A model generated the notes under the pieces. It saw only the letters and a list, made by a program, of their open reading frames with translations, was not told the origin of the DNA and did no database searches. From a virus (taxonomy: Duplodnaviria > Heunggongvirae > Uroviricota > Caudoviricetes): DNA of 64,000 nucleotides. The stretch is from the IMG/VR virus record IMGVR_UViG_3300017917_003521, one strand, 5' to 3'. Position 1 is the first letter of the stretch; each line of letters starts with the position of its first letter. The position numbers were made by a program, and so were the translations under genes. Of the stretch, positions 25,008 to 58,084 are shown piece after piece.

Positions 25008-26117
25008 TTATTTTTTAAATTCTTTTTTGTCATTAGAAATATAGAAATTATCAAAGTTGTAGTATTTTTCATACACCTCTTTAACTTTTTTCATATTAAC
25101 CTCATCTAAAATGTCATACACAGACCAACCTTTAGGATTGATATATTGATTAACATTTTTATATCTTAGAATTTCATCTTTTTCCATTCTTACTTTATAG
25201 TAGTCTTTTACAAGATTAAATCTGTCTTTAGTCAGATACTTTTCAGGTTTTGTAATAACTTCTTTTACTGAATCAACAACAGCATTAAAGTTCTTGTTAG
25301 ATGTTTGAGTAGCAATAGTGTTGATACCTTGTTCATTCATTCTACTTTGATAACAATGAACATAGTATACTAAACCTTTCTTTTCACGAATATCTTGATA
25401 AAGAGGTGACATCAAACCAAGTGATAACATAGCATTAATGTAATGAACATAAGCAAAATCTTCTTCAATAACTGGTGAAAGAATAGCAATAGACGTTTTA
25501 TCTTTGAAATCATTATTTAATTCTAATGGAACTTTATGGTCACCAAAAGCTATATTTTTAACAATTTTTCTTTCTGCAAAGTCTAAAGAATTATTTTTAT
25601 ACTTTTTATTTTTTGAAACATTGATAATTTTTGTTGGCTTAGCATATTGAAGTTCAAAGAAGTTAAGACAATCCATGAACTTCATAGACTCTAAATCTTG
25701 TTTTAATCCAATTGGATCGTAATCTCCAAATAGTTTACGACTAAGATTTAACATATGTGACTGTGATTGGTCATTGAAACAATCCATATATTCTTCAAGA
25801 ACAATATTTCTTTCATTTTCAAACTGTTCTTTAGTAACATTGAATTCACCAAGTAAGTCCATAAACTCACCTTTCCACTTATTTACTTTTTCATCAAGTC
25901 CTGTTAAATAAAAAACGATTTCGTTATTTGAAGTGTAGGCATTCCAGTCAATACCATCTCTATCAAAATCTTCTTGAAGATGATCAAAGTTTTTACACAT
26001 TAAATGTTCCATTAAATGGCTAATGCCATACCAACCTTTTTTCTCAAGGTTTGTTGAACCTTCATAAACTACATAAAAACCAGAAAGGTCTGTTTGAGAT
26101 TTTAAATTTACTATCAT
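25008..26117 (-). CDS. M16 (pitrilysin/insulinase)-family metallopeptidase-like protein
   Basis: Inverted zinc motif HxxEH in 'GISHLMEHLMCK', with a downstream Glu in 'ENERNIVLEEY' about 70 residues later. Confidence 0.55.
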   Translation of the reverse strand: MIVNLKSQTDLSGFYVVYEGSTNLEKKGWYGISHLMEHLMCKNFDHLQEDFDRDGIDWNAYTSNNEIVFYLTGLDEKVNKWKGEFMDLLGEFNVTKEQFENERNIVLEEYMDCFNDQSQSHMLNLSRKLFGDYDPIGLKQDLESMKFMDCLNFFELQYAKPTKIINVSKNKKYKNNSLDFAERKIVKNIAFGDHKVPLELNNDFKDKTSIAILSPVIEEDFAYVHYINAMLSLGLMSPLYQDIREKKGLVYYVHCYQSRMNEQGINTIATQTSNKNFNAVVDSVKEVITKPEKYLTKDRFNLVKDYYKVRMEKDEILRYKNVNQYINPKGWSVYDILDEVNMKKVKEVYEKYYNFDNFYISNDKKEFKK

Positions 26118-28210: not shown

Positions 28211-28287
28211 AATTTATATATTTAGAAAAATTAGTTGTCGAATTGAAATATATTTTCTATATTTGTAGAAATAATATATTCAAATAA

Positions 28288-28926
28288 ATGATAAAAGTTG
28301 GTCTCTCAGGTAATAGATATTCAGGAAAAGATGAAGTTTGTAATCAATTCCGCAGGATTTCTATTCCTGTATTTGAAGCTGATGTAGTTTTAAGATTTAT
28401 TATACATCATAATTTTGAAGTAAATAAAGAAATTAAATCTAGATTGAGTGAATTGTATGGTACATATGAAACTTATATTTCACCAGAGTTTGCAAAATCA
28501 AAAGAAGAAATTGACATTATTATACAATGTGCTCAAGATGAATTATTCAGAGCATATGAACAATTCTCAATAAAAAATAAATCATCAATTTATACAATAT
28601 TTAATTCATCTATACTTTATGAAACTAAATGGAATAAAGTTATGAATTATAATATCTCTGTCTTTGCTCCAAAGATTACAAGAATGGAGAGATTTCAAGA
28701 ACTTACTAAAAAGAAAGTATCAGATATTGCTTTCTTATTAAGAAATGAAATTGATGATTTAGATAAGAACAAAATGGCTAACTTTGTATTACATAGTTAT
28801 AGCGGCAGAGACGTAAAAAGACAAGTTCATGAAATAGACCAGTTTGTGATAGATTCATATCTTAGAATGGAACAAACAGACAAATTAACTCCAGATGGTA
28901 AAGGTATAATTTTAACACATTTTTAA
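28288..28926 (+). CDS. P-loop kinase, T4 gp1 dNMP-kinase-like
   Basis: N-terminal 'VGLSGNRYSGKDEV' resembles the 'G.KRSGKDT' loop of phage deoxynucleoside monophosphate kinases. Confidence 0.35.
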   Translation: MIKVGLSGNRYSGKDEVCNQFRRISIPVFEADVVLRFIIHHNFEVNKEIKSRLSELYGTYETYISPEFAKSKEEIDIIIQCAQDELFRAYEQFSIKNKSSIYTIFNSSILYETKWNKVMNYNISVFAPKITRMERFQELTKKKVSDIAFLLRNEIDDLDKNKMANFVLHSYSGRDVKRQVHEIDQFVIDSYLRMEQTDKLTPDGKGIILTHF

Positions 28927-29369
28927 TGAAAAATAAAATTAGAATTAAGTTAGTTTCACCAACTTCCAATAAGTTAGCATTTGTTAAACTTATTAAAGAT
29001 TGTAGTGATATGGGTTTGAAAGAGGCAAAAGATATTTGTGACTTTTTACATGCGAATCCTGGTGTTGTTAAAGAATTCGAAACTAGAAAAGTTGACTCTA
29101 ATGGTAATCATATAGACTTTAGAAAAAAGTTTGCTAATGATATCAAAAGTATTGATGGTAAATTTATTGTAAATGGTGGTTCTCAATGGGAGAGAGATGT
29201 AAAAATGCTAAAGCTTGGTATTGGTGACACATCTGACTATTGTGAGGTTATCAAAGAAAATATTTTAAATAGTTTGGATAATTCAGAAGAGCTACTTAAC
29301 TTTGTACTCTCGAAACTTTCTAAAAAAGAATTAGAAGAAGTTTTTAATAAAATCAATATAGAATTATAA
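28926..29369 (+). CDS. protein with N-terminal ribosomal protein bL12 C-terminal-domain-like module
   Basis: 'IKLVSPTSNKLAFVKLIKDCSDMGLKEAKDICDFLHANPGVVKEFETRKV' aligns with the bL12 CTD (FDVIL..[21 protein letters not shown]..VKE), including the hallmark GLKEAKD. Confidence 0.5.
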   Translation: MKNKIRIKLVSPTSNKLAFVKLIKDCSDMGLKEAKDICDFLHANPGVVKEFETRKVDSNGNHIDFRKKFANDIKSIDGKFIVNGGSQWERDVKMLKLGIGDTSDYCEVIKENILNSLDNSEELLNFVLSKLSKKELEEVFNKINIEL

Positions 29370-29765
29370 ATGGCAAACGCTTGGATACATTCAAAATCTT
29401 CTGCTCGTAAATACGGAGGAGAACCAGAAGATTATCTTAATATTCATATAAAAATGGATTGTTCAAAGGCTTATGTTGCTGATAACAGACACAGAGCATT
29501 AACACACACTAATTTTTGGATTCATGAGGTAATGATACCTATTTTTGGTTATACAATGACCAATTCGGCTGGAAGAGTCGTATCTGTCAAAGATATTTGT
29601 GAACAACACATACTTGAAGACTTTGGTATGAAGTTTATTCCTACCGCACAAGATTACATTGAAAACATGGAATTTAAAGACTGGATGCAAAATGGTATCA
29701 AAGGACATCCAACATCCTTTGACAAACTAGCAGAAAAAGGTAATATTAAAGTAAATTTAGACTAA
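29370..29765 (+). CDS. hypothetical protein
   Basis: 131-aa ORF whose start abuts the previous stop. Confidence 0.4.
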   Translation: MANAWIHSKSSARKYGGEPEDYLNIHIKMDCSKAYVADNRHRALTHTNFWIHEVMIPIFGYTMTNSAGRVVSVKDICEQHILEDFGMKFIPTAQDYIENMEFKDWMQNGIKGHPTSFDKLAEKGNIKVNLD

Positions 29766-29768
29766 TAT

Positions 29769-30494
29769 ATGATAGTAGTTTGTAAAAGACCAACTAAAAG
29801 ACTTGTCAAAGGAGTTCAATATGAAGTCGTTAACTTATGGAATTCCGGTAATAATCAAAGATGGCAAGAAGGAAAAGTTCAAATATTAGGAATTGGAACA
29901 TTCATAGTTGATAACTTCACTGATGTCAATGGAAATCCTCTTCCGAAGACAGATATTATTACTCCTCTTCAACCGCTTCAAACATTAAAATTTGAAGATT
30001 TGAAAAAAGGTGATATTTTAGTTTGTACATCAGATAGTTATAAAACCTTGGGTAAGGGTTGCATGTATCAAATTGAAATATTAAACCAAAAATCTAGTCA
30101 GAGAATAGGTTGGAATAAACAACCCTATACACACACTGAACAAAAAATTAAATTTGTTGGTATACCTCGTACAATTAAATTTAGTAGTTGGAGGTTTAGA
30201 AAACTCACACCACAAGAATCTCGTGAGATTTCTTTAAATTCTGTTTTACATGGTGAAGAACCTGTAATTGTAAAATCAAAAGATATTCGTAAGATTGAAA
30301 TGGCTGCTAACAAAGAGTTAGAATTAATGACAGCTCTTTCAAAATCAATAATTGATCCTAATAGACATCACCTATCTATTTTAGATTGGGCTTGTCAGAA
30401 ATCAGGTGATAATCTTGGTATTAATACTGAAGACTATTCATCAATGATGAATATGAGTCTAAAAGATATTCTTGAAAAAATCGAAACAAAATAA
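29769..30494 (+). CDS. hypothetical protein
   Basis: 241-aa ORF. Confidence 0.4.
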   Translation: MIVVCKRPTKRLVKGVQYEVVNLWNSGNNQRWQEGKVQILGIGTFIVDNFTDVNGNPLPKTDIITPLQPLQTLKFEDLKKGDILVCTSDSYKTLGKGCMYQIEILNQKSSQRIGWNKQPYTHTEQKIKFVGIPRTIKFSSWRFRKLTPQESREISLNSVLHGEEPVIVKSKDIRKIEMAANKELELMTALSKSIIDPNRHHLSILDWACQKSGDNLGINTEDYSSMMNMSLKDILEKIETK

Positions 30495-30516
30495 AAATAA
30501 ATTATATACAATAACT

Positions 30517-31005
30517 ATGACAAATGACAAGTTCGCAGTTTTGAAAGAAAAACAAGCAGAAATTGAAAAACTGAAAAAAGAAATGTTAGAAGCGTCTAAC
30601 AAGATTTTTACAGACCTCACAAAAACAATTTTTGAAGATCATCCTAAGGTTGAATCTTTTGGATGGACACAGTATACTCCATATTTTAATGATGGTGACA
30701 CATGTACGTTCTCTGCACACACAGACTATATTTATTTAAATGGAGAAAGTGTAGATGAGGCTAAATGGTTAAGTCCTGTTAATGTTAAAACTTGGGGTAC
30801 TTGGAACCGTGAAAAAAGAGTTTATGAAGGACGAGAAGAAGTTCCTAATCTGGATTACGATAAAGAATTAGCTGATGCGGTTGAAGAGATTAAAGAGTTT
30901 CTTCATCACTTTGATAATGACTTTTTCTTATCCCAATTTGGAGACCACGCTGAGGTAACAATAACAAGAGAAGGTGTTGATATTAATGAATGTGAACACG
31001 ATTAA
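30517..31005 (+). CDS. hypothetical protein
   Basis: Internal ATG (MTNDKFAVLKEK) of track ORF 30472-31005, which avoids overlap with 29769-30494. Confidence 0.4.
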   Translation: MTNDKFAVLKEKQAEIEKLKKEMLEASNKIFTDLTKTIFEDHPKVESFGWTQYTPYFNDGDTCTFSAHTDYIYLNGESVDEAKWLSPVNVKTWGTWNREKRVYEGREEVPNLDYDKELADAVEEIKEFLHHFDNDFFLSQFGDHAEVTITREGVDINECEHD

Positions 31006-31055
31006 TAAGTAACAATTAAAATAGTAAATAATAAATTAAATTAAAAAAAAAGAAA

Positions 31056-32969
31056 ATGAGTAACATTTTAGATTTTATGTCAAATTATTGGTGGATTGGT
31101 GTAATCCTCCTTTGTGTAGTAATGTATCGATTCATTCTACGAGTATTCTTCGGTCTTGTGATTGTACCAGAAGATAAAATTGGTTTAGTAACCAAAAAGT
31201 TTGTTCTTTGGGGTGAAAACATGGAGTTAACAGGTGACCGAATCATCGCAACTAAAGGTGAAGCTGGTTATCAAGCAGAAACACTATCACCTGGTTTACA
31301 TTGGTTTATGTGGCCTTGGCAGTATTCAGTGGATATGCAATCATTCATTGTTATCCCTGAGGGTCATATTGGTCTAGTATCTGCTAAAGATGGTTCTGTT
31401 CCAAAAACAGGTCGAATCTTGGGTCGTAGTGTTGAGTGTGAAAACTTCCAAGATGCAATGGCTTTCTTAAACAACGGTGGTCAAAAAGGTAGACAAGCCG
31501 CATTTATTCCAAATGGTGTTTATAAGATTAATACACACTTATTTGAAGTATCTGCTGTTAAACAGGCAACTATTCAAGAGAATATGGTTGGTATTGTTAC
31601 TACTCTTGATGGTGAGCCACTTGAGAATGGACAAATTGCTGGTAAAAACGTAGAGGCTCATAACAACTTCCAAAACTTTGACCAATTCTTAGAGTCTGGT
31701 GGTAACCGTGGTCTACAACAACAAGTTATCTTGGCTGGTTCTTATAACTTAAACCCTTGGGCTGTTCAAGTTGAAGAAGTTCAAATGACTGAAATTCCTA
31801 TTGGTCACGTTGGTGTTGTTATTTCTTATGTTGGTGAAGATGGTGTTGACGTAACTGGTGCTAACTTCAAACACGGTAACTTAGTTGGTAAAGGACAAAA
31901 AGGTGTTTGGGCTGAGCCGCTTGGACCTGGTAAATACCCTGTTAATAAATACACTAACAGAGTTGAGTTAGTTCCAACTACTAACCTTGTATTGAATTGG
32001 GCATCTGCTCGTACAGAGTCTCACAACTTAGATAAGAACTTGAATACAATCACAGTTCGTTCTAAAGATGGTTTCCCATTCAACTTAGACGTGTCTCAAA
32101 TTATTCACATTCCAATGACAGAAGCACCAAAAGTAATCGCTCGATTTGGTAATATGAATAACCTTGTATCTCAAGTACTTGAGCCTACAATTGGTAACTA
32201 CTTCCGTAACTCAGCTCAAGACTCTGATGTTATTGCTTTCTTAACAACTCGTAAAGAACGTCAAGACTCAGCAAAACAACATATCTCTAAAGTATTAGAT
32301 GAATATAACGTTTATGCTGTTGATACTTTGATTGGTGATATTGTTCCACCACAAGAGTTGATGAAAACTTTGACTGACCGTAAAATTGCTCAAGAGCAAG
32401 AGGTGACTTTTGAAACTCAAAAGAAAGCCGCTATGTCACGTCAAACATACGAGAAAGAGACAGCTATTGCTGATATGCAAGCAGAGGTTGTTAAAGCTGA
32501 CCAAGGTGTTCAAATTGCTGAAAGACACGCTGACGCTTCTGTTAAGAAAGCAACTGGTGATGCTCGTTCAGTTAAAATTAACGCTGAAGCACAAGCAGAA
32601 GCTACCAAGTTGAAAGCTGAAGCAGATGCTACAAGAACATCACTTATTGGTAATGCTGAGGCTGAAGCTATCCTTTCTAAGGGTAAATCTACAGCAGAAG
32701 CTTACAAACTAGCCGTTGAGGCGATGGGTAAAGAAAACTTTACAACATTTAAGGTTACCGAAGAGATTGGTAAGAACGGTGTGAAAATCATGCCTGACTT
32801 GTTAATCAATGGAGGTGGACAAAGCGGGAACGGTGCAATAGATGGATTATTGGGAGTTCAAATTCTTAATATGATGGGAAACCAAGTTAAGACTTTGAAC
32901 GACACAACAGTGAAGTCGGTAGAAAATTCTGATGAGCCTGTTGAAGACTCTAAAAAGAGTAAGAAGTAA
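31056..32969 (+). CDS. SPFH/band-7 (flotillin-like) membrane protein with C-terminal coiled coil
   Basis: N-terminal TM 'WWIGVILLCVVMY' and an SPFH core '...LIGDIVPPQELMKTLTDRKIAQEQ'. The C-terminus is a long A/E/K-rich coiled coil, followed by an intrinsic terminator at 32985-33018. Confidence 0.65.
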   Translation: MSNILDFMSNYWWIGVILLCVVMYRFILRVFFGLVIVPEDKIGLVTKKFVLWGENMELTGDRIIATKGEAGYQAETLSPGLHWFMWPWQYSVDMQSFIVIPEGHIGLVSAKDGSVPKTGRILGRSVECENFQDAMAFLNNGGQKGRQAAFIPNGVYKINTHLFEVSAVKQATIQENMVGIVTTLDGEPLENGQIAGKNVEAHNNFQNFDQFLESGGNRGLQQQVILAGSYNLNPWAVQVEEVQMTEIPIGHVGVVISYVGEDGVDVTGANFKHGNLVGKGQKGVWAEPLGPGKYPVNKYTNRVELVPTTNLVLNWASARTESHNLDKNLNTITVRSKDGFPFNLDVSQIIHIPMTEAPKVIARFGNMNNLVSQVLEPTIGNYFRNSAQDSDVIAFLTTRKERQDSAKQHISKVLDEYNVYAVDTLIGDIVPPQELMKTLTDRKIAQEQEVTFETQKKAAMSRQTYEKETAIADMQAEVVKADQGVQIAERHADASVKKATGDARSVKINAEAQAEATKLKAEADATRTSLIGNAEAEAILSKGKSTAEAYKLAVEAMGKENFTTFKVTEEIGKNGVKIMPDLLINGGGQSGNGAIDGLLGVQILNMMGNQVKTLNDTTVKSVENSDEPVEDSKKSKK

Positions 32970-32984
32970 TCTTCATACTATTCA

Positions 32985-33018
32985 AAAACCCTCTGATTAA
33001 TTTCAGAGGGTTTTTTTA
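32985..33018 (+). terminator. intrinsic terminator after SPFH gene
   Basis: CCCTCTGA / TCAGAGGG stem followed by TTTTTTTATTTT. Confidence 0.65.
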
Positions 33019-33800: not shown

Positions 33801-34544
33801 ATGTATAACAAGATATATGACTTTTGTAAAGTAAGAAACCTTGGTAGTGTTTATTCTAATACAGATGAGCCTACACCAAGGGTTAAATTCATTACTGATT
33901 TATTAGAGTCAGAAGGAATTGACTATGAATTAGATATTTTTAAGTCAAGAAATATTTCTTGTTACAACATTATCATGAAAGGCAATTCAACTAAAATGGT
34001 TGTTGCTCATCACGATATTAGTAATCCTAATATTGATAATGCTAATGATAACTCAGCTTCTGTTATCAATGCTATTATGATTAAGAAGTTATTACCAGAA
34101 ACTAATGTTGTTCTATTAGATGGTGAGGAATGTGGTGGACTTGGTTCTCAAAGATGTTCAGAACAAATTAATGAAGGATATTTCGGTAAAATTGATTGGG
34201 TTCTTAATTTAGAACTAACAGGTAAGGGTGGTAAATACTTCTTTATTGGTAACTATCCAGGTGTTTTATCAAATCATATTAAATCAATTTTTGATTGTCC
34301 TATTACAAATACTCCTTTTAACGATTCTGTTACTTTTAGAAAGAATGGAATTGACTCTTGTGTTATTAATCCTATTCCACCTTTAAATGAGGGTAAAACA
34401 TCTTGTGTTAAATGGGATGATAATACTTATTTAGATTACTCAATGCTATATAATTGTCATTCTAAAAAGGATTCTATTGATACAATAGACATTCTTGATA
34501 TGAAAGAGTTTGTAGAAGATGTTGTGTTAAAAATTCTAGCATAA
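33801..34544 (+). CDS. clan-MH zinc peptidase-like protein (M20/M28/M42-type)
   Basis: 'VVAHHD' and 'LLDGEECGGLGS' resemble the His/Asp and Glu-Glu metal-ligand motifs. Assignment is weak. Confidence 0.35.
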   Translation: MYNKIYDFCKVRNLGSVYSNTDEPTPRVKFITDLLESEGIDYELDIFKSRNISCYNIIMKGNSTKMVVAHHDISNPNIDNANDNSASVINAIMIKKLLPETNVVLLDGEECGGLGSQRCSEQINEGYFGKIDWVLNLELTGKGGKYFFIGNYPGVLSNHIKSIFDCPITNTPFNDSVTFRKNGIDSCVINPIPPLNEGKTSCVKWDDNTYLDYSMLYNCHSKKDSIDTIDILDMKEFVEDVVLKILA

Positions 34545-56164: not shown

Positions 56165-56237
56165 GGAACCTAAGCTAATCAGGTGAAAGCACTGGACTGA
56201 AAATCCAGGGAGCCCGGATCGTTACCGGGAGGTTCCA
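56165..56237 (+). tRNA. tRNA-Phe(GAA)
   Basis: GGAACCT/AGGTTCC acceptor. Anticodon arm CTGGA-CTGAAAA-TCCAG, T-arm CCCGG-ATCGTTA-CCGGG. 73 nt. Confidence 0.65.
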
Positions 56238-56244
56238 CTAAAAT

Positions 56245-56318
56245 GGTGAATGTAGCTCAATCGGTAGAGCGTTGGTTTGTGGAGCCAAAGGCAGCGGGAT
56301 CGTAACCCGTCATTCACC
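56245..56318 (+). tRNA. tRNA-His(GUG) with encoded G-1
   Basis: G-1 then GTGAATG/CATTCAC, discriminator C. D-arm GCTC-AATCGGTA-GAGC. Anticodon arm TTGGT-TTGTGGA-GCCAA. Confidence 0.7.
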
Positions 56319-56323
56319 CAAAA

Positions 56324-56395
56324 GGAGACTTAGCTGAGACGGTTTAGCGTCTGGTTGAAGCCCAGAAGAGGTCGGTTCGATTCCGGCAGTCTCCA
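56324..56395 (+). tRNA. tRNA, anticodon GAA by hand fold (second Phe-like; G37)
   Basis: GGAGACT/AGTCTCC acceptor. Anticodon arm TCTGG-TTGAAGC-CCAGA, T-arm GTCGG-TTCGATT-CCGGC. 72 nt. Confidence 0.5.
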
Positions 56396-56401
56396 CAAAA
56401 T

Positions 56402-56483
56402 ACAGGTACTCATTGGTGTGACCAGCCGGTTCCAACCCGGTAATTCGTAAGAGTGGCTGTAGGTTCGAGTCCTACTACCTGTG
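56402..56483 (+). tRNA. aberrant tRNA-like gene (82 nt) with Trp-type CCA anticodon loop and 17-nt variable region
   Basis: ACAGGTA/TACCTGT acceptor. Anticodon arm CCGG-TTCCAAC-CCGG, T-arm GTAGG-TTCGAGT-CCTAC. The D-region is non-canonical. Confidence 0.4.
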
Positions 56484-56498
56484 CTAAAAGACAAACCT

Positions 56499-56569
56499 AC
56501 GGGTGTGGTGAAATGGTATCATGACGGTCTCCAAAACCGTTGTTCTTGGTTCGAGTCCAGGCACCCGTG
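56499..56569 (+). tRNA. tRNA-Trp(CCA)
   Basis: ACGGGTG/CACCCGT acceptor. Anticodon arm ACGGT-CTCCAAA-ACCGT, T-arm CTTGG-TTCGAGT-CCAGG. Confidence 0.65.
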
Positions 56570-56614
56570 CAAAATGATTAAGATGATGAAAACTAAGTTG
56601 AAATATAAACGCTA

Positions 56615-56645
56615 GGCAACGACCAAATGAATACGGGTCGTTGCC
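56615..56645 (+). repeat. perfect 10-bp-stem hairpin (GGCAACGACC / GGTCGTTGCC, 11-nt loop) inside tRNA array spacer
   Basis: Inverted repeat read directly from the sequence. It lies between tRNA-Trp and tRNA-Lys and has no T-tract on the + strand. Confidence 0.5.
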
Positions 56646-56657
56646 ATTAAAAACAAT

Positions 56658-56730
56658 GATTCCGTAGCTCAATTGGTGGAGCTTCCGGCTTTTAACCGGA
56701 AGGATGTGGGTTCGAGTCCCACCGGGATCA
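56658..56730 (+). tRNA. tRNA-Lys(UUU), canonical type I
   Basis: GATTCCG/CGGGATC acceptor, A73. D-arm GCTC-AATTGGTG-GAGC. Anticodon arm TCCGG-CTTTTAA-CCGGA, the same loop as E. coli tRNA-Lys. T-arm GTGGG-TTCGAGT-CCCAC. 73 nt. Confidence 0.8.
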
Positions 56731-56739
56731 CTAAATATT

Positions 56740-56826
56740 GATTCTGTCGCTTAGTGGCTATAGCAACTGGCTTTTAACCAGTAGAGATAATGTTCTCAAC
56801 CGTGGGTTCGAGTCCCACCAGGATCA
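56740..56826 (+). tRNA. type-II-like tRNA (87 nt) with Lys anticodon UUU, A73 and 19-nt variable arm
   Basis: GATTCTG/CAGGATC acceptor. Anticodon arm ACTGG-CTTTTAA-CCAGT. Variable arm A-GAGA-TAATGT-TCTC-AACC. T-arm identical to the canonical Lys gene. Confidence 0.55.
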
Positions 56827-56832
56827 CAAAAC

Positions 56833-56916
56833 ACTCCTGTCGCTCAGAGGCCGAGAGCAACTGGCTTTTAACCAGTAGACGAAAGTCCATCGTAGGTTCG
56901 AATCCTACCAGGGGTA
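56833..56916 (+). tRNA. type-II-like tRNA (84 nt) with Lys anticodon UUU, A73 and 15-nt variable arm (GAC-GAAA-GTC)
   Basis: ACTCCTG/CAGGGGT acceptor. D-arm GCTC-AGAGGCCGA-GAGC. Anticodon arm ACTGG-CTTTTAA-CCAGT. Variable AGACGAAAGTCCATC. T-arm GTAGG-TTCGAAT-CCTAC. Confidence 0.55.
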
Positions 56917-56921
56917 CAAAT

Positions 56922-57006
56922 GACTCCGTTTCCGTAGAGGCCGAACGGTTCTGACTCTTAATCAGATGACGAAAGTCCACCGTGGGTTCGAATCCCACCG
57001 GGGTCA
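56922..57006 (+). tRNA. type-II-like tRNA (85 nt) with Lys anticodon CUU, A73 and 15-nt variable arm (GAC-GAAA-GTC)
   Basis: GACTCCG/CGGGGTC acceptor. Anticodon arm TCTGA-CTCTTAA-TCAGA. Variable TGACGAAAGTCCACC. T-arm GTGGG-TTCGAAT-CCCAC. Confidence 0.55.
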
Positions 57007-57009
57007 CAA

Positions 57010-57068
57010 ATTGAAACTAAAAACTAAAAAGTAATTTTTTAGATAATTTTATAGTTTTTAGTTTTAAT
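57010..57068 (+). repeat. AT-rich nested inverted repeat downstream of tRNA array
   Basis: AAACTAAAAACTAAAAAG pairs with AGTTTTTAGTTTT, and an inner CTAAAAAG / TTTTTTAG pairing lies inside it. Confidence 0.4.
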
Positions 57069-57092
57069 ATATACATGAAATAAAATATATTT

Positions 57093-57641
57093 TTGTGTAT
57101 GAAAGAAGAAATAATTAAACTAATAAATGAGGGTTTTACATATGATGATATTACTAAAAAATTAGGTTGTTCTAAAAGTACAATATCTTATCATTGTAAT
57201 AAATTAAATTTAAAAAGTAAAAGTAAAAATATAGATGTAAATAGTGAACTTGTAAATAAAATTAACGAATTGTATAAATGTGGAAATAGCTCTTATACAA
57301 TATCAAAAATTTTAGGAATTTCAAAAAGTACAGCTCTTAAATATATTAGTAAAGAAAATATAAGGACTAAGAAAAAAACTAAAACTAAAAAGGATAAGTC
57401 CGAATACATAATGAGATGGAAGAAAAATCTTAAAAAGAGTTTAGTTGAATACAAAGGATCTAAATGTGAAATTTGTGGATATGATAGATGTATAGAGGCT
57501 TTAGAATTTCATCACTCTGATCCAAGTAAAAAGGATTTTTCAATATCTACAAAATTATTTGGAATTGAAAAAATGAAAAAAGAAGTAGATAAATGTTTAC
57601 TGTTATGTTCTAATTGCCATAGAGAAAAACATTATTTATAA
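57093..57641 (+). CDS. HNH homing endonuclease with N-terminal HTH repeats
   Basis: C-terminal 'CEICGYDRCIEALEFHHSDPSKKDF...LLCSNCHREKH' is an HNH motif. It lies between the two tRNA arrays. Confidence 0.6.
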   Translation: MCMKEEIIKLINEGFTYDDITKKLGCSKSTISYHCNKLNLKSKSKNIDVNSELVNKINELYKCGNSSYTISKILGISKSTALKYISKENIRTKKKTKTKKDKSEYIMRWKKNLKKSLVEYKGSKCEICGYDRCIEALEFHHSDPSKKDFSISTKLFGIEKMKKEVDKCLLLCSNCHREKHYL

Positions 57642-57649
57642 TAAAATTA

Positions 57650-57779
57650 GGGGATGTAGCTCAGTGGTAGAGTTTAAAATATCTCTTTTGAGGTTTTACC
57701 TTGAAAAAGTGTTGATTAAAAGAGTTACTTCGTTTGAATTGAAATCAAAAGGTCGTTGGTTCGAATCCAACCATCCCCG
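57650..57779 (+). tRNA. tRNA-like gene with 59-nt insertion between D-arm and anticodon stem; type-I scaffold, anticodon UGA, G73
   Basis: 5' part GGGGATG-TA-GCTCAGTGGTAGAGT. 3' part TTTGA-ATTGAAA-TCAAA, AGGTC, GTTGG-TTCGAAT-CCAAC, CATCCCC-G. The acceptor pairs perfectly. The 59 nt at 57674-57732 form their own hairpin (CTCTTTT...AAAAGAG). Confidence 0.4.
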
Positions 57780-57790
57780 CTAAAAAAATA

Positions 57791-57822
57791 TTTGTAAATC
57801 TCAGAAAAAAGATTTACTTTTG
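57791..57822 (+). promoter_or_regulatory. Bacteroidetes-type promoter (TTTG ... TACTTTTG) upstream of second tRNA array
   Basis: TTTG 57791-57794 and TACTTTTG 57815-57822 with a 20-nt spacer. Confidence 0.45.
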
Positions 57823-57964
57823 TAGAAACAAAGAATAAAAAATTAATATATAATAAAGTTATGAAAACAATTATGCTTACATCGAAGTCGTCAAGTAGTC
57901 GCTCGTCAAAAACGAGTGAGGTTCGATCGTATTCATAATAGTCGTATAAATAAGATATTATGTA

Positions 57965-58000
57965 AACCCTTCGAACCAAAAGTTTGAAGGGTTTTTTGTT
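57965..58000 (+). terminator. strong hairpin plus T-tract immediately upstream of second tRNA array
   Basis: AACCCTTCGAAC...GTTTGAAGGGTT stem, then the same trailing motif TTTTTTGTTTTATATGG as at 56056. Confidence 0.55.
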
Positions 58001-58006
58001 TTATAT

Positions 58007-58079
58007 GGTTCCATCGTCCAATTGGACAGGACACTCCGCTACGAACGGAGAAATGAGGGTTCGAATCCTTCTGGAACTA
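58007..58079 (+). tRNA. tRNA-Arg(ACG)
   Basis: Acceptor GGTTCCA/TGGAACT (G1-U72). D-arm GTCC-AATTGGACA-GGAC. Anticodon arm CTCCG-CTACGAA-CGGAG. T-arm GAGGG-TTCGAAT-CCTTC. Confidence 0.65.
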
Positions 58080-58084
58080 CAAAT

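Follow-up and report, generated by a model that had tools for sequence, protein, structure and literature searches.

An open reading frame (ORF) on the plus strand of a 64,000-nucleotide stretch of tailed-phage DNA (Caudoviricetes; IMG/VR record IMGVR_UViG_3300017917_003521; the whole stretch is hereafter termed the window) raises the question of what a phage protein may do with the ribosomal protein bL12 (L7/L12) C-terminal domain (CTD) when the part that fixes bL12 to the ribosomal stalk is missing. A first-pass annotation, made from the sequence alone, had placed this ORF at 28926-29369, and these coordinates were found to be exact: the ORF list and the sequence gave an ATG start, a TAA stop, and a product of 147 amino acids (aa), hereafter the L12-like protein, with FVKLIKDCSDMGLKEAKDICDFLHANPGVVKEFETRKV within its translation. 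The identity and architecture of this product can be stated with high confidence, in that it corresponds to a phage protein in which a bL12 CTD devoid of the stalk anchor is joined to a novel domain.

The similarity of the product to bL12 far exceeds chance. A match to the Pfam family Ribosomal_L12 (PF00542) covered residues 7-50 (E=4.5e-6), its 27.3 bits lying just above the gathering cutoff of 25.9 bits, and the same family was matched individually by 55 of 56 close homologs, among which no second Pfam family was found. When the L12-like protein was searched by sequence against the PDB, the top match was 1ctf, which corresponds to the CTD of E. coli L7/L12. Alignment comparisons by hhalign gave a probability of 94.9% for the L12-like family against authentic bL12 with the first alignment, of 96.2% with a deeper family alignment (E=2.8e-9; query residues 9-77 against bL12 residues 59-115), and of 97.4% when the N-terminal half of the family was used alone. 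An early homology search with E. coli bL12 had yielded Enterobacteria only, and three sequences (T. maritima, B. subtilis, and M. tuberculosis) were added to the bL12 alignment A3; the conclusion drawn from this alignment was later re-examined against 80 database-derived bL12 sequences. Profile and fold similarity to the Ribosomal_L12 CTD were both significant, which bears out the bL12-CTD-like module that the first-pass annotation had proposed for this ORF.

The module proved to be longer than initially thought. AlphaFold was run with 56 sequences (model 1, predicted local distance difference test score, pLDDT, of 77.9) and with 102 sequences (model 2, pLDDT of 91.9 and predicted template modelling score, pTM, of 0.70). 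The modelled N-terminal half, hereafter the N-domain, comprised strand β1 (residues 4-11), two helices (16-26 and 31-43), strand β2 (48-53), a third helix (65-73), and strand β3 (79-83), in a β-α-α-β-α-β topology, that is, the full fold of the bL12 CTD. Residues 65-83, DFRKKFANDIKSIDGKFIVNG, correspond to the final helix and strand of this fold, and they lie beyond a variable loop (54-64) in which relatives present insertions of up to ~25 aa. Because this loop follows, the similarity had been lost near residue 50 both by Pfam, whose match stops at position 43 of the 67 of the PF00542 profile, and by the first-pass annotation, which had placed the module at ~6-55, whereas the deeper hhalign alignment crosses the loop. 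The likeness to bL12 was thus retained, but the end near residue 55 was not, since the hhalign alignment reaches residue 77 and the AlphaFold fold residue 83. As the CTD fold spans residues ~4-83, the unrelated C-terminal region, which had been given as a domain of ~90 aa, is therefore present but comprises only ~63 aa (85-147).

ClpS and the bL12 CTD share one common fold, and a structural match to ClpS is therefore expected for any bL12 CTD. A ClpS-like protease adaptor, delivering substrates, would fit the M16 peptidase, M28 peptidase, and SPFH/Band_7 genes found near the L12-like gene. However, the identity of the N-domain to ClpS was of 5-6%, against 18-20% to bL12, and the ClpS Pfam family (PF02617) was matched by none of the 56 members. 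Moreover, direct reading of β1 and the first helix did not reveal the N-degron pocket motif of ClpS (NDD.TP.), and this adaptor role is considered very improbable.

The two domains are joined by a Gly-Gly pair that is invariant in close homologs and stands in the place of the long Ala/Gly/Pro hinge of bL12. Following this junction, AlphaFold predicted four helices (residues 86-96, 102-115, 120-129, and 133-142), which compose an acidic C-domain with an isoelectric point (pI) of 4.55 (family median 4.7). The motif R90..K93.L95.LG98.G100....DY105 was kept in this domain across the 102 non-redundant members of the family. A profile built with the C-domain only retrieved just proteins of ~120-142 aa with the identical two-domain architecture, or fragments thereof, and this search detected no relative of the C-domain outside the L12-like family, in agreement with the novelty already claimed for the C-terminal region. 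N-domain and C-domain are, in this way, an obligate pair. A SAP-like nature, as in the C-terminal domain of MANF (ARMET), was also considered for the C-domain, and no significant match to ARMET_C or to the solved MANF C-domains was obtained.

The region of bL12 involved with dimerisation and stalk binding, previously annotated as missing, was in fact absent from the L12-like protein, which begins straight at strand β1. PF16320, corresponding to the bL12 N-terminal domain (NTD), had no match in the query at E<=1 nor in the 56 members at E<=0.01, and no second bL12-like or NTD-like ORF was found within the window. On direct reading, no Ala/Gly/Pro-rich hinge or low-complexity linker was found, only Gly-Gly joining the domains. 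In addition, the NCBIfam bL12 equivalog (TIGR00855), whose cutoff is 84.4 bits, scored only 24 bits. Lacking both the N-terminal stalk anchor and the hinge, the L12-like protein, judging from its sequence, cannot be classed as a ribosomal bL12, and it shows no recognisable means to take the bL12 site on uL10. A domain-swapped bL12, in which the C-domain would be the relocated NTD, was also evaluated and rejected, with an hhalign probability of 4.8% between the C-domain and the bL12 NTD and no match to PF16320.

These same results bear on the proposal that the L12-like protein replaces host bL12 on the ribosome. In this case, the C-domain would substitute for the bL12 NTD, dimerising and binding the C-terminal helix of uL10, and the recruitment of factors would be retuned for phage mRNAs. 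A flexible hinge is required for bL12 activity, and the presence of Gly-Gly only, together with the low hhalign probability and the lack of PF16320 matches among the 56 members, argues against such replacement. On the other hand, the C-domain is helical and acidic, as is the bL12 NTD, and both domains are under strong constraint. It is also known that bL12 swaps readily on ribosomes, and one peptide of a phage bL12-domain protein was seen in 70S fractions, although the tagged protein failed to pull down ribosomes (PMC6375957). Taken together, stalk replacement is regarded here as improbable.

The constraint on the L12-like gene was observed in pairwise comparisons with three close homologs, in which the whole-gene ratio of nonsynonymous to synonymous substitution rates (dN/dS) was 0.12-0.29. 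Per-domain values were 0.05-0.30, the C-domain being more tightly constrained in most pairs, and the gene is under purifying selection in both domains. An exhaustive profile search returned 1320 matches at E<=1e-3, about 100 of them being full-length two-domain proteins of 130-170 aa, and the 102 non-redundant members presented a median identity of 38%. Homologs were borne by contigs of 132, 135, 476, and 481 kb, and only two GenBank phage records were matched, both uncultured (634,780 and 642,428 bp), with no cultured phage at BLAST level. As far as the search patterns could reach, no member of the family was found in GTDB species genomes, and the family appears to be phage-restricted. Al-Shayeb et al. 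2020 place their genomes of >634 kb in the 'Mahaphage' clade, for which Bacteroidetes hosts were predicted (PMC7162821). The L12-like gene is a conserved operon gene of a huge-phage lineage related to these 634-642 kb 'Mahaphage' genomes.

The origin of the N-domain was also searched for, by scoring its profile against named bL12 genes (80) and tandem bL12-CTD units (168), the latter being described below. Authentic CTDs of all phyla scored 22-37 bits, and tandem units reached up to 41.7 bits. Since these score ranges overlap, and no phylum stood out, a donor lineage could not be named. A 'KL..VK' pattern expected for Bacteroidota bL12 was not borne out by two Bacteroidota sequences.

If the stalk position is not available, with what would the N-domain interact? 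According to the hhalign mapping, query residue i corresponds to residue i+49 of mature E. coli bL12, so that K16, L17, V20, K21, K24, G30, L31, K35, and D39 take the positions of bL12 K65, V66, I69, K70, R73, G79, L80, K84, and E88, respectively. Among the 102 non-redundant members, K16 was conserved in 79% and the remaining eight residues in 88-100%. Apart from K65 and helices 4/5, the factor-contact residues considered here are general background, associated with Helgstrand 2007 and Kothe 2004. Helices 4/5 of bL12 are the documented binding site of IF2, EF-Tu, EF-G, and RF3 (PMC6753160), and K65 was found to be functionally important (PMC6110070). In the helix comprising residues 16-26, the conserved residues, two lysines among them, are spaced i, i+3, i+4, and i+7, which points to an exposed face and not to the core. 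Across the 102 members, the N-domain and the C-domain each present a conserved surface with many charged residues, and these residues would be expected to be exposed.

We tentatively propose, as the leading explanation although with confidence well short of even, that the L12-like protein would act as an off-stalk bivalent adaptor for translational GTPases. As the normal stalk place of bL12 is unavailable to it, the protein would work off the stalk. The basic face of the N-domain (K16, L17, V20, K21, K24, L31, K35, and D39) would contact translational GTPases of the host or the phage at their G domains, EF-Tu, EF-G, IF2, and RF3 being the candidate partners, and the second conserved surface, on the C-domain (R90, K93, L95, G98, and Y105), would hold another partner. 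The outcome would be the sequestration or redirection of factors as the phage takes over host translation. The titration or tethering of EF-Tu, EF-G, or IF2, which the first-pass annotation had suggested, is plausible. The presence of an S1-like neighbour and a tRNA array in the window fits a context of translation takeover, and genes for rpL7/L12, S1, and EF-G/Tu/Ts are among those reported for huge phages by Al-Shayeb et al. 2020 (PMC7162821).

Several observations weigh against this adaptor proposal. First, the profile search also retrieved 43 non-ribosomal proteins of 215-1056 aa, in which bL12-CTD units are repeated in tandem, usually 3-7 in each protein (168 units altogether), and none of which has the four-helix C-domain. 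The 168 units were equally conserved in the positions equivalent to K65 (92%), K70 (91%), K/R73 (96%), L80 (95%), K84 (93%), and D/E88 (97%). By a crude sequence test, an apparent signal peptide or lipobox was found in 5 of these 43 proteins, P0109 and P0131 being the clearest cases, which implies a putative extracytoplasmic use of the bL12 CTD. In apparently secreted proteins, translation factors cannot be the partner, and the 20 units of the putatively secreted proteins presented K65 and K70 in 95% and K84 and D/E88 in 100%. Because conservation is equal in tandem and apparently secreted units, the conservation of the helix-4/5 residues is, as judged from these alignments, a signature of the domain and not specific evidence of factor binding; it may reflect fold requirements or another shared ligand. 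Second, isolated bL12 CTDs bind factors only weakly, and only very high expression or avidity would make titration feasible. Third, authentic CTDs are acidic (median pI 5.2), but the N-domain is basic, at pI 9.5 with a family median of 8.7, and its interaction properties may have changed, given this charge. Finally, the sole experiment on a phage bL12-domain protein, whose 70S fractions and pull-down were mentioned above, gave an ambiguous result (PMC6375957).

Regarding the tandem proteins, P0077, P0089, P0109, and P0131 have in common with the L12-like protein the same domain and the same residues, in a non-ribosomal context, and they score like authentic bL12 against the phage N-domain profile. 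These four, as well as P0144, P0196, and P0199, are large cellular proteins with 3-7 tandem complete bL12 CTDs. Two other proteins, P0176 and P0147, were the top scorers against the phage N-domain profile. They are rich in Lys, Ile, and Asn, as in AT-rich genomes, present 3-4 L12-CTD-like modules from residue 1 (MKIKLVSIGRNKIRVVKLVK...), and may be related phage proteins.

The operon in which the L12-like gene is found suggests a different partner. Directly upstream lies a gene encoding a CoaE-like P-loop protein, of the dephospho-CoA kinase family, and the stop codon of this gene shares bases with the start codon of the L12-like gene (TAATG). All 15 related loci, which include 476-635 kb huge phages and reach down to ~40% identity, had this gene immediately upstream of the L12-like gene, and in most of them the stop and start codons overlapped. 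It could then be supposed that the bL12-CTD fold is a generic protein-interaction module without a translation link, which would bind a phage protein of the same operon, most plausibly the CoaE-like kinase; by analogy with the stimulation of P-loop GTPases by bL12, the module could be an activating or regulatory subunit. This explanation is consistent with the divergence of the N-domain charge from that of authentic CTDs, and with the widespread occurrence of bL12-CTD units, with identical conserved residues, in proteins that are not ribosomal and in some cases apparently secreted, which indicates that the domain is reusable outside translation. The Walker A motif of the CoaE-like protein is also unusual (GNRYSGKD), as GK is followed by Asp in place of the normal Ser/Thr, and this motif was identical in the homolog from the 634 kb phage. 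However, synteny by itself is no proof of physical interaction, the S1-like gene and the tRNAs suit a translational role at least equally, and we know of no nucleotide kinase on which a bL12 CTD acts. A generic interaction module bound to an operon partner is, for these reasons, considered rather unlikely.

Another proposal, held to be quite unlikely, is that the L12-like and CoaE-like proteins would operate away from the ribosome as a self-contained pair, a 'stalk domain plus NTPase', in which the target of the bL12 domain would have shifted from translational GTPases to a phage kinase/NTPase with an atypical Walker A (GKD), and the acidic four-helix domain would dock the pair on a host target. 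If true, this would be the first case of a ribosomal GTPase-activating module in a non-ribosomal enzyme system.

Returning to the off-stalk adaptor, its novelty has to be considered in view of the known systems. When compared with the bL12 CTD, the N-domain retains the fold, homology over the whole domain, the GLGLKEAKD turn, and the helix-4/5 residues. In contrast with bL12, the L12-like protein has neither NTD nor hinge, its N-domain is basic instead of acidic, and it presents a loop insertion between β2 and the third helix and an extra four-helix domain. Phage bL12 domains without the rest of bL12, standing alone or, often, inside larger proteins and with the EF-G/EF-Tu contact residues kept, were described by Mizuno et al. 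2019, who proposed these viral proteins as translation-factor interfaces (PMC6375957); the idea of phage bL12 domains as such interfaces is, then, already published and not new. The examples of that study were found in Ralstonia phage RSB3, Dinoroseobacter phage DFL12phi1, and Salmonella phage FSL SP-076 (PMC6375957). As in this class, the L12-like protein is phage-encoded, of CTD type without the bL12 NTD, joined to unrelated sequence, and conserves the factor-contact residues. Moreover, the best viral structural matches to the L12-like model were proteins of this type, with which the library names, derived from UniProt, agree. Nevertheless, the class of Mizuno et al. comes from cultivated podoviruses of <80 kb and from varied contexts, whereas the L12-like protein has a fixed architecture and a conserved operon, in genomes from >130 kb to 635 kb.

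Genomes of the same kind were studied by Al-Shayeb et al. 2020, who listed L7/L12 among the ribosomal proteins of huge phages; in the excerpted text of that paper, the gene is named only as rpL7/L12 and grouped with genes of the elongation step, and the missing NTD, the extra C-domain, and the operon were not found described (PMC7162821). Proteins annotated as 'L7/L12 C-terminal domain' also appear in later genome notes on other phages, and phage L12-domain genes as a kind are already known. To our knowledge, what appears to be undescribed is a two-domain architecture that is fixed and includes a unique four-helix domain, the obligate coupling of the L12-like gene to the CoaE-like gene, and the L12-like gene as a core operon gene of its huge-phage lineage.

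If off-stalk binding to EF-Tu, EF-G, or IF2 were true, the L12-like protein would offer a small and easily expressed handle on the interception of Bacteroidota translation by huge phages. Such interception of host translation was proposed from gene inventories, and the L12-like family would suit a test of this idea, as it has two separate conserved surfaces that could be mutated independently. The calibration with tandem units also cautions against inferring engagement with the ribosome or its factors from any viral match to PF00542.

The window presents other characteristics of a phage, such as tail-fibre-like proteins, SbcC, an NAD-dependent ligase, a primase, 10 clustered tRNA genes, and ~29% GC. 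The gene order around the L12-like gene was conserved in the lineage. On the minus strand, genes for a Dam methyltransferase and an M16 peptidase were found, together with a primase gene in most loci. On the plus strand, the CoaE-like and L12-like genes are followed by a DUF6915 gene, in most loci, and by a gene for a 241 aa protein, onward to Band_7 and the M28 peptidase, with the S1-like gene beyond (Table 1). The DUF6915 gene, which begins one base past the L12-like stop codon, occurs in most relatives and is absent from the loci L006, L007, and L008. Its product had no relative among solved structures, and its residues 45-106 weakly matched the cysteinyl-tRNA synthetase catalytic domain in two libraries that agreed, Pfam (E=0.0046) and NCBIfam (E=0.0073). 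By tblastn, the 241 aa gene was syntenic wherever the related locus extended far enough. The M16, SPFH/Band_7, and M28 genes that flank the operon give it a conserved neighbourhood of proteolysis and membrane-scaffold flavour.

Table 1. Coordinates of the L12-like gene, its segments, and the surrounding features in the window.
Feature	Position	Strand	Basis or remarks
L12-like whole ORF, two-domain phage protein	28926-29369	+	147 aa plus stop; ORF list, sequence, homologs
Complete bL12 CTD fold, residues 4-83	28935-29174	+	AlphaFold, hhalign
Helix 4/5 equivalents with GLKEAKD signature, residues 16-43	28971-29054	+	hhalign mapping, conservation
Variable loop between β2 and third helix, residues 54-64	29085-29117	+	family alignment, Pfam end, hhalign
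Gly-Gly domain junction, residues 84-85	29175-29180	+	alignments, direct reading
Acidic four-helix C-terminal domain, residues 86-147	29181-29366	+	AlphaFold, conservation
CoaE-like (dephospho-CoA kinase family) P-loop gene	28288-28926	+	PF01121 E=1.6e-10; PDB 1jjv
DUF6915 gene	29370-29765	+	PF21866 E=2e-36
Gene for 241 aa protein, without Pfam match	29769-30494	+	tblastn synteny
M16 peptidase	25008-26117	-	syntenic across lineage
SPFH/Band_7	31056-32969	+	syntenic across lineage
Terminator-like hairpin after Band_7 gene	32984-33015	+	13-bp stem and T-run; pattern scan, consensus match only
M28 peptidase	33801-34544	+	syntenic across lineage
S1-like protein, 365 aa	35569-36666	-	residues 16-363 against 30S S1 models, E=1.7e-35
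10-tRNA array: Phe x2, His, Trp x2, Lys x4, Arg	56165-58080	+	

The S1-like protein scored far below the S1 equivalog cutoffs and was syntenic in all relatives examined. Its gene is a second ribosomal-protein-like gene, located 6 kb from the L12-like gene. Regarding expression signals, no Shine-Dalgarno sequence was found upstream of the L12-like ATG, and a scan for sigma-70 promoters gave 21 sites against 23 expected, being thus uninformative. The sequence TATATTTG was observed at 28258-28265 on the plus strand, 22 nt upstream of the CoaE-like ATG, and it resembles the Bacteroidetes -7 promoter element. The strong terminator-like hairpin that follows the Band_7 gene is the probable end point of the plus-strand operon starting at 28288, whose putative extent would then be 28288-32969. 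In the tRNA array, several of the Lys and Trp tRNA genes were of 83-88 nt, which is unusual for class I tRNAs, and these may be mis-assigned, intron-bearing, or otherwise atypical.

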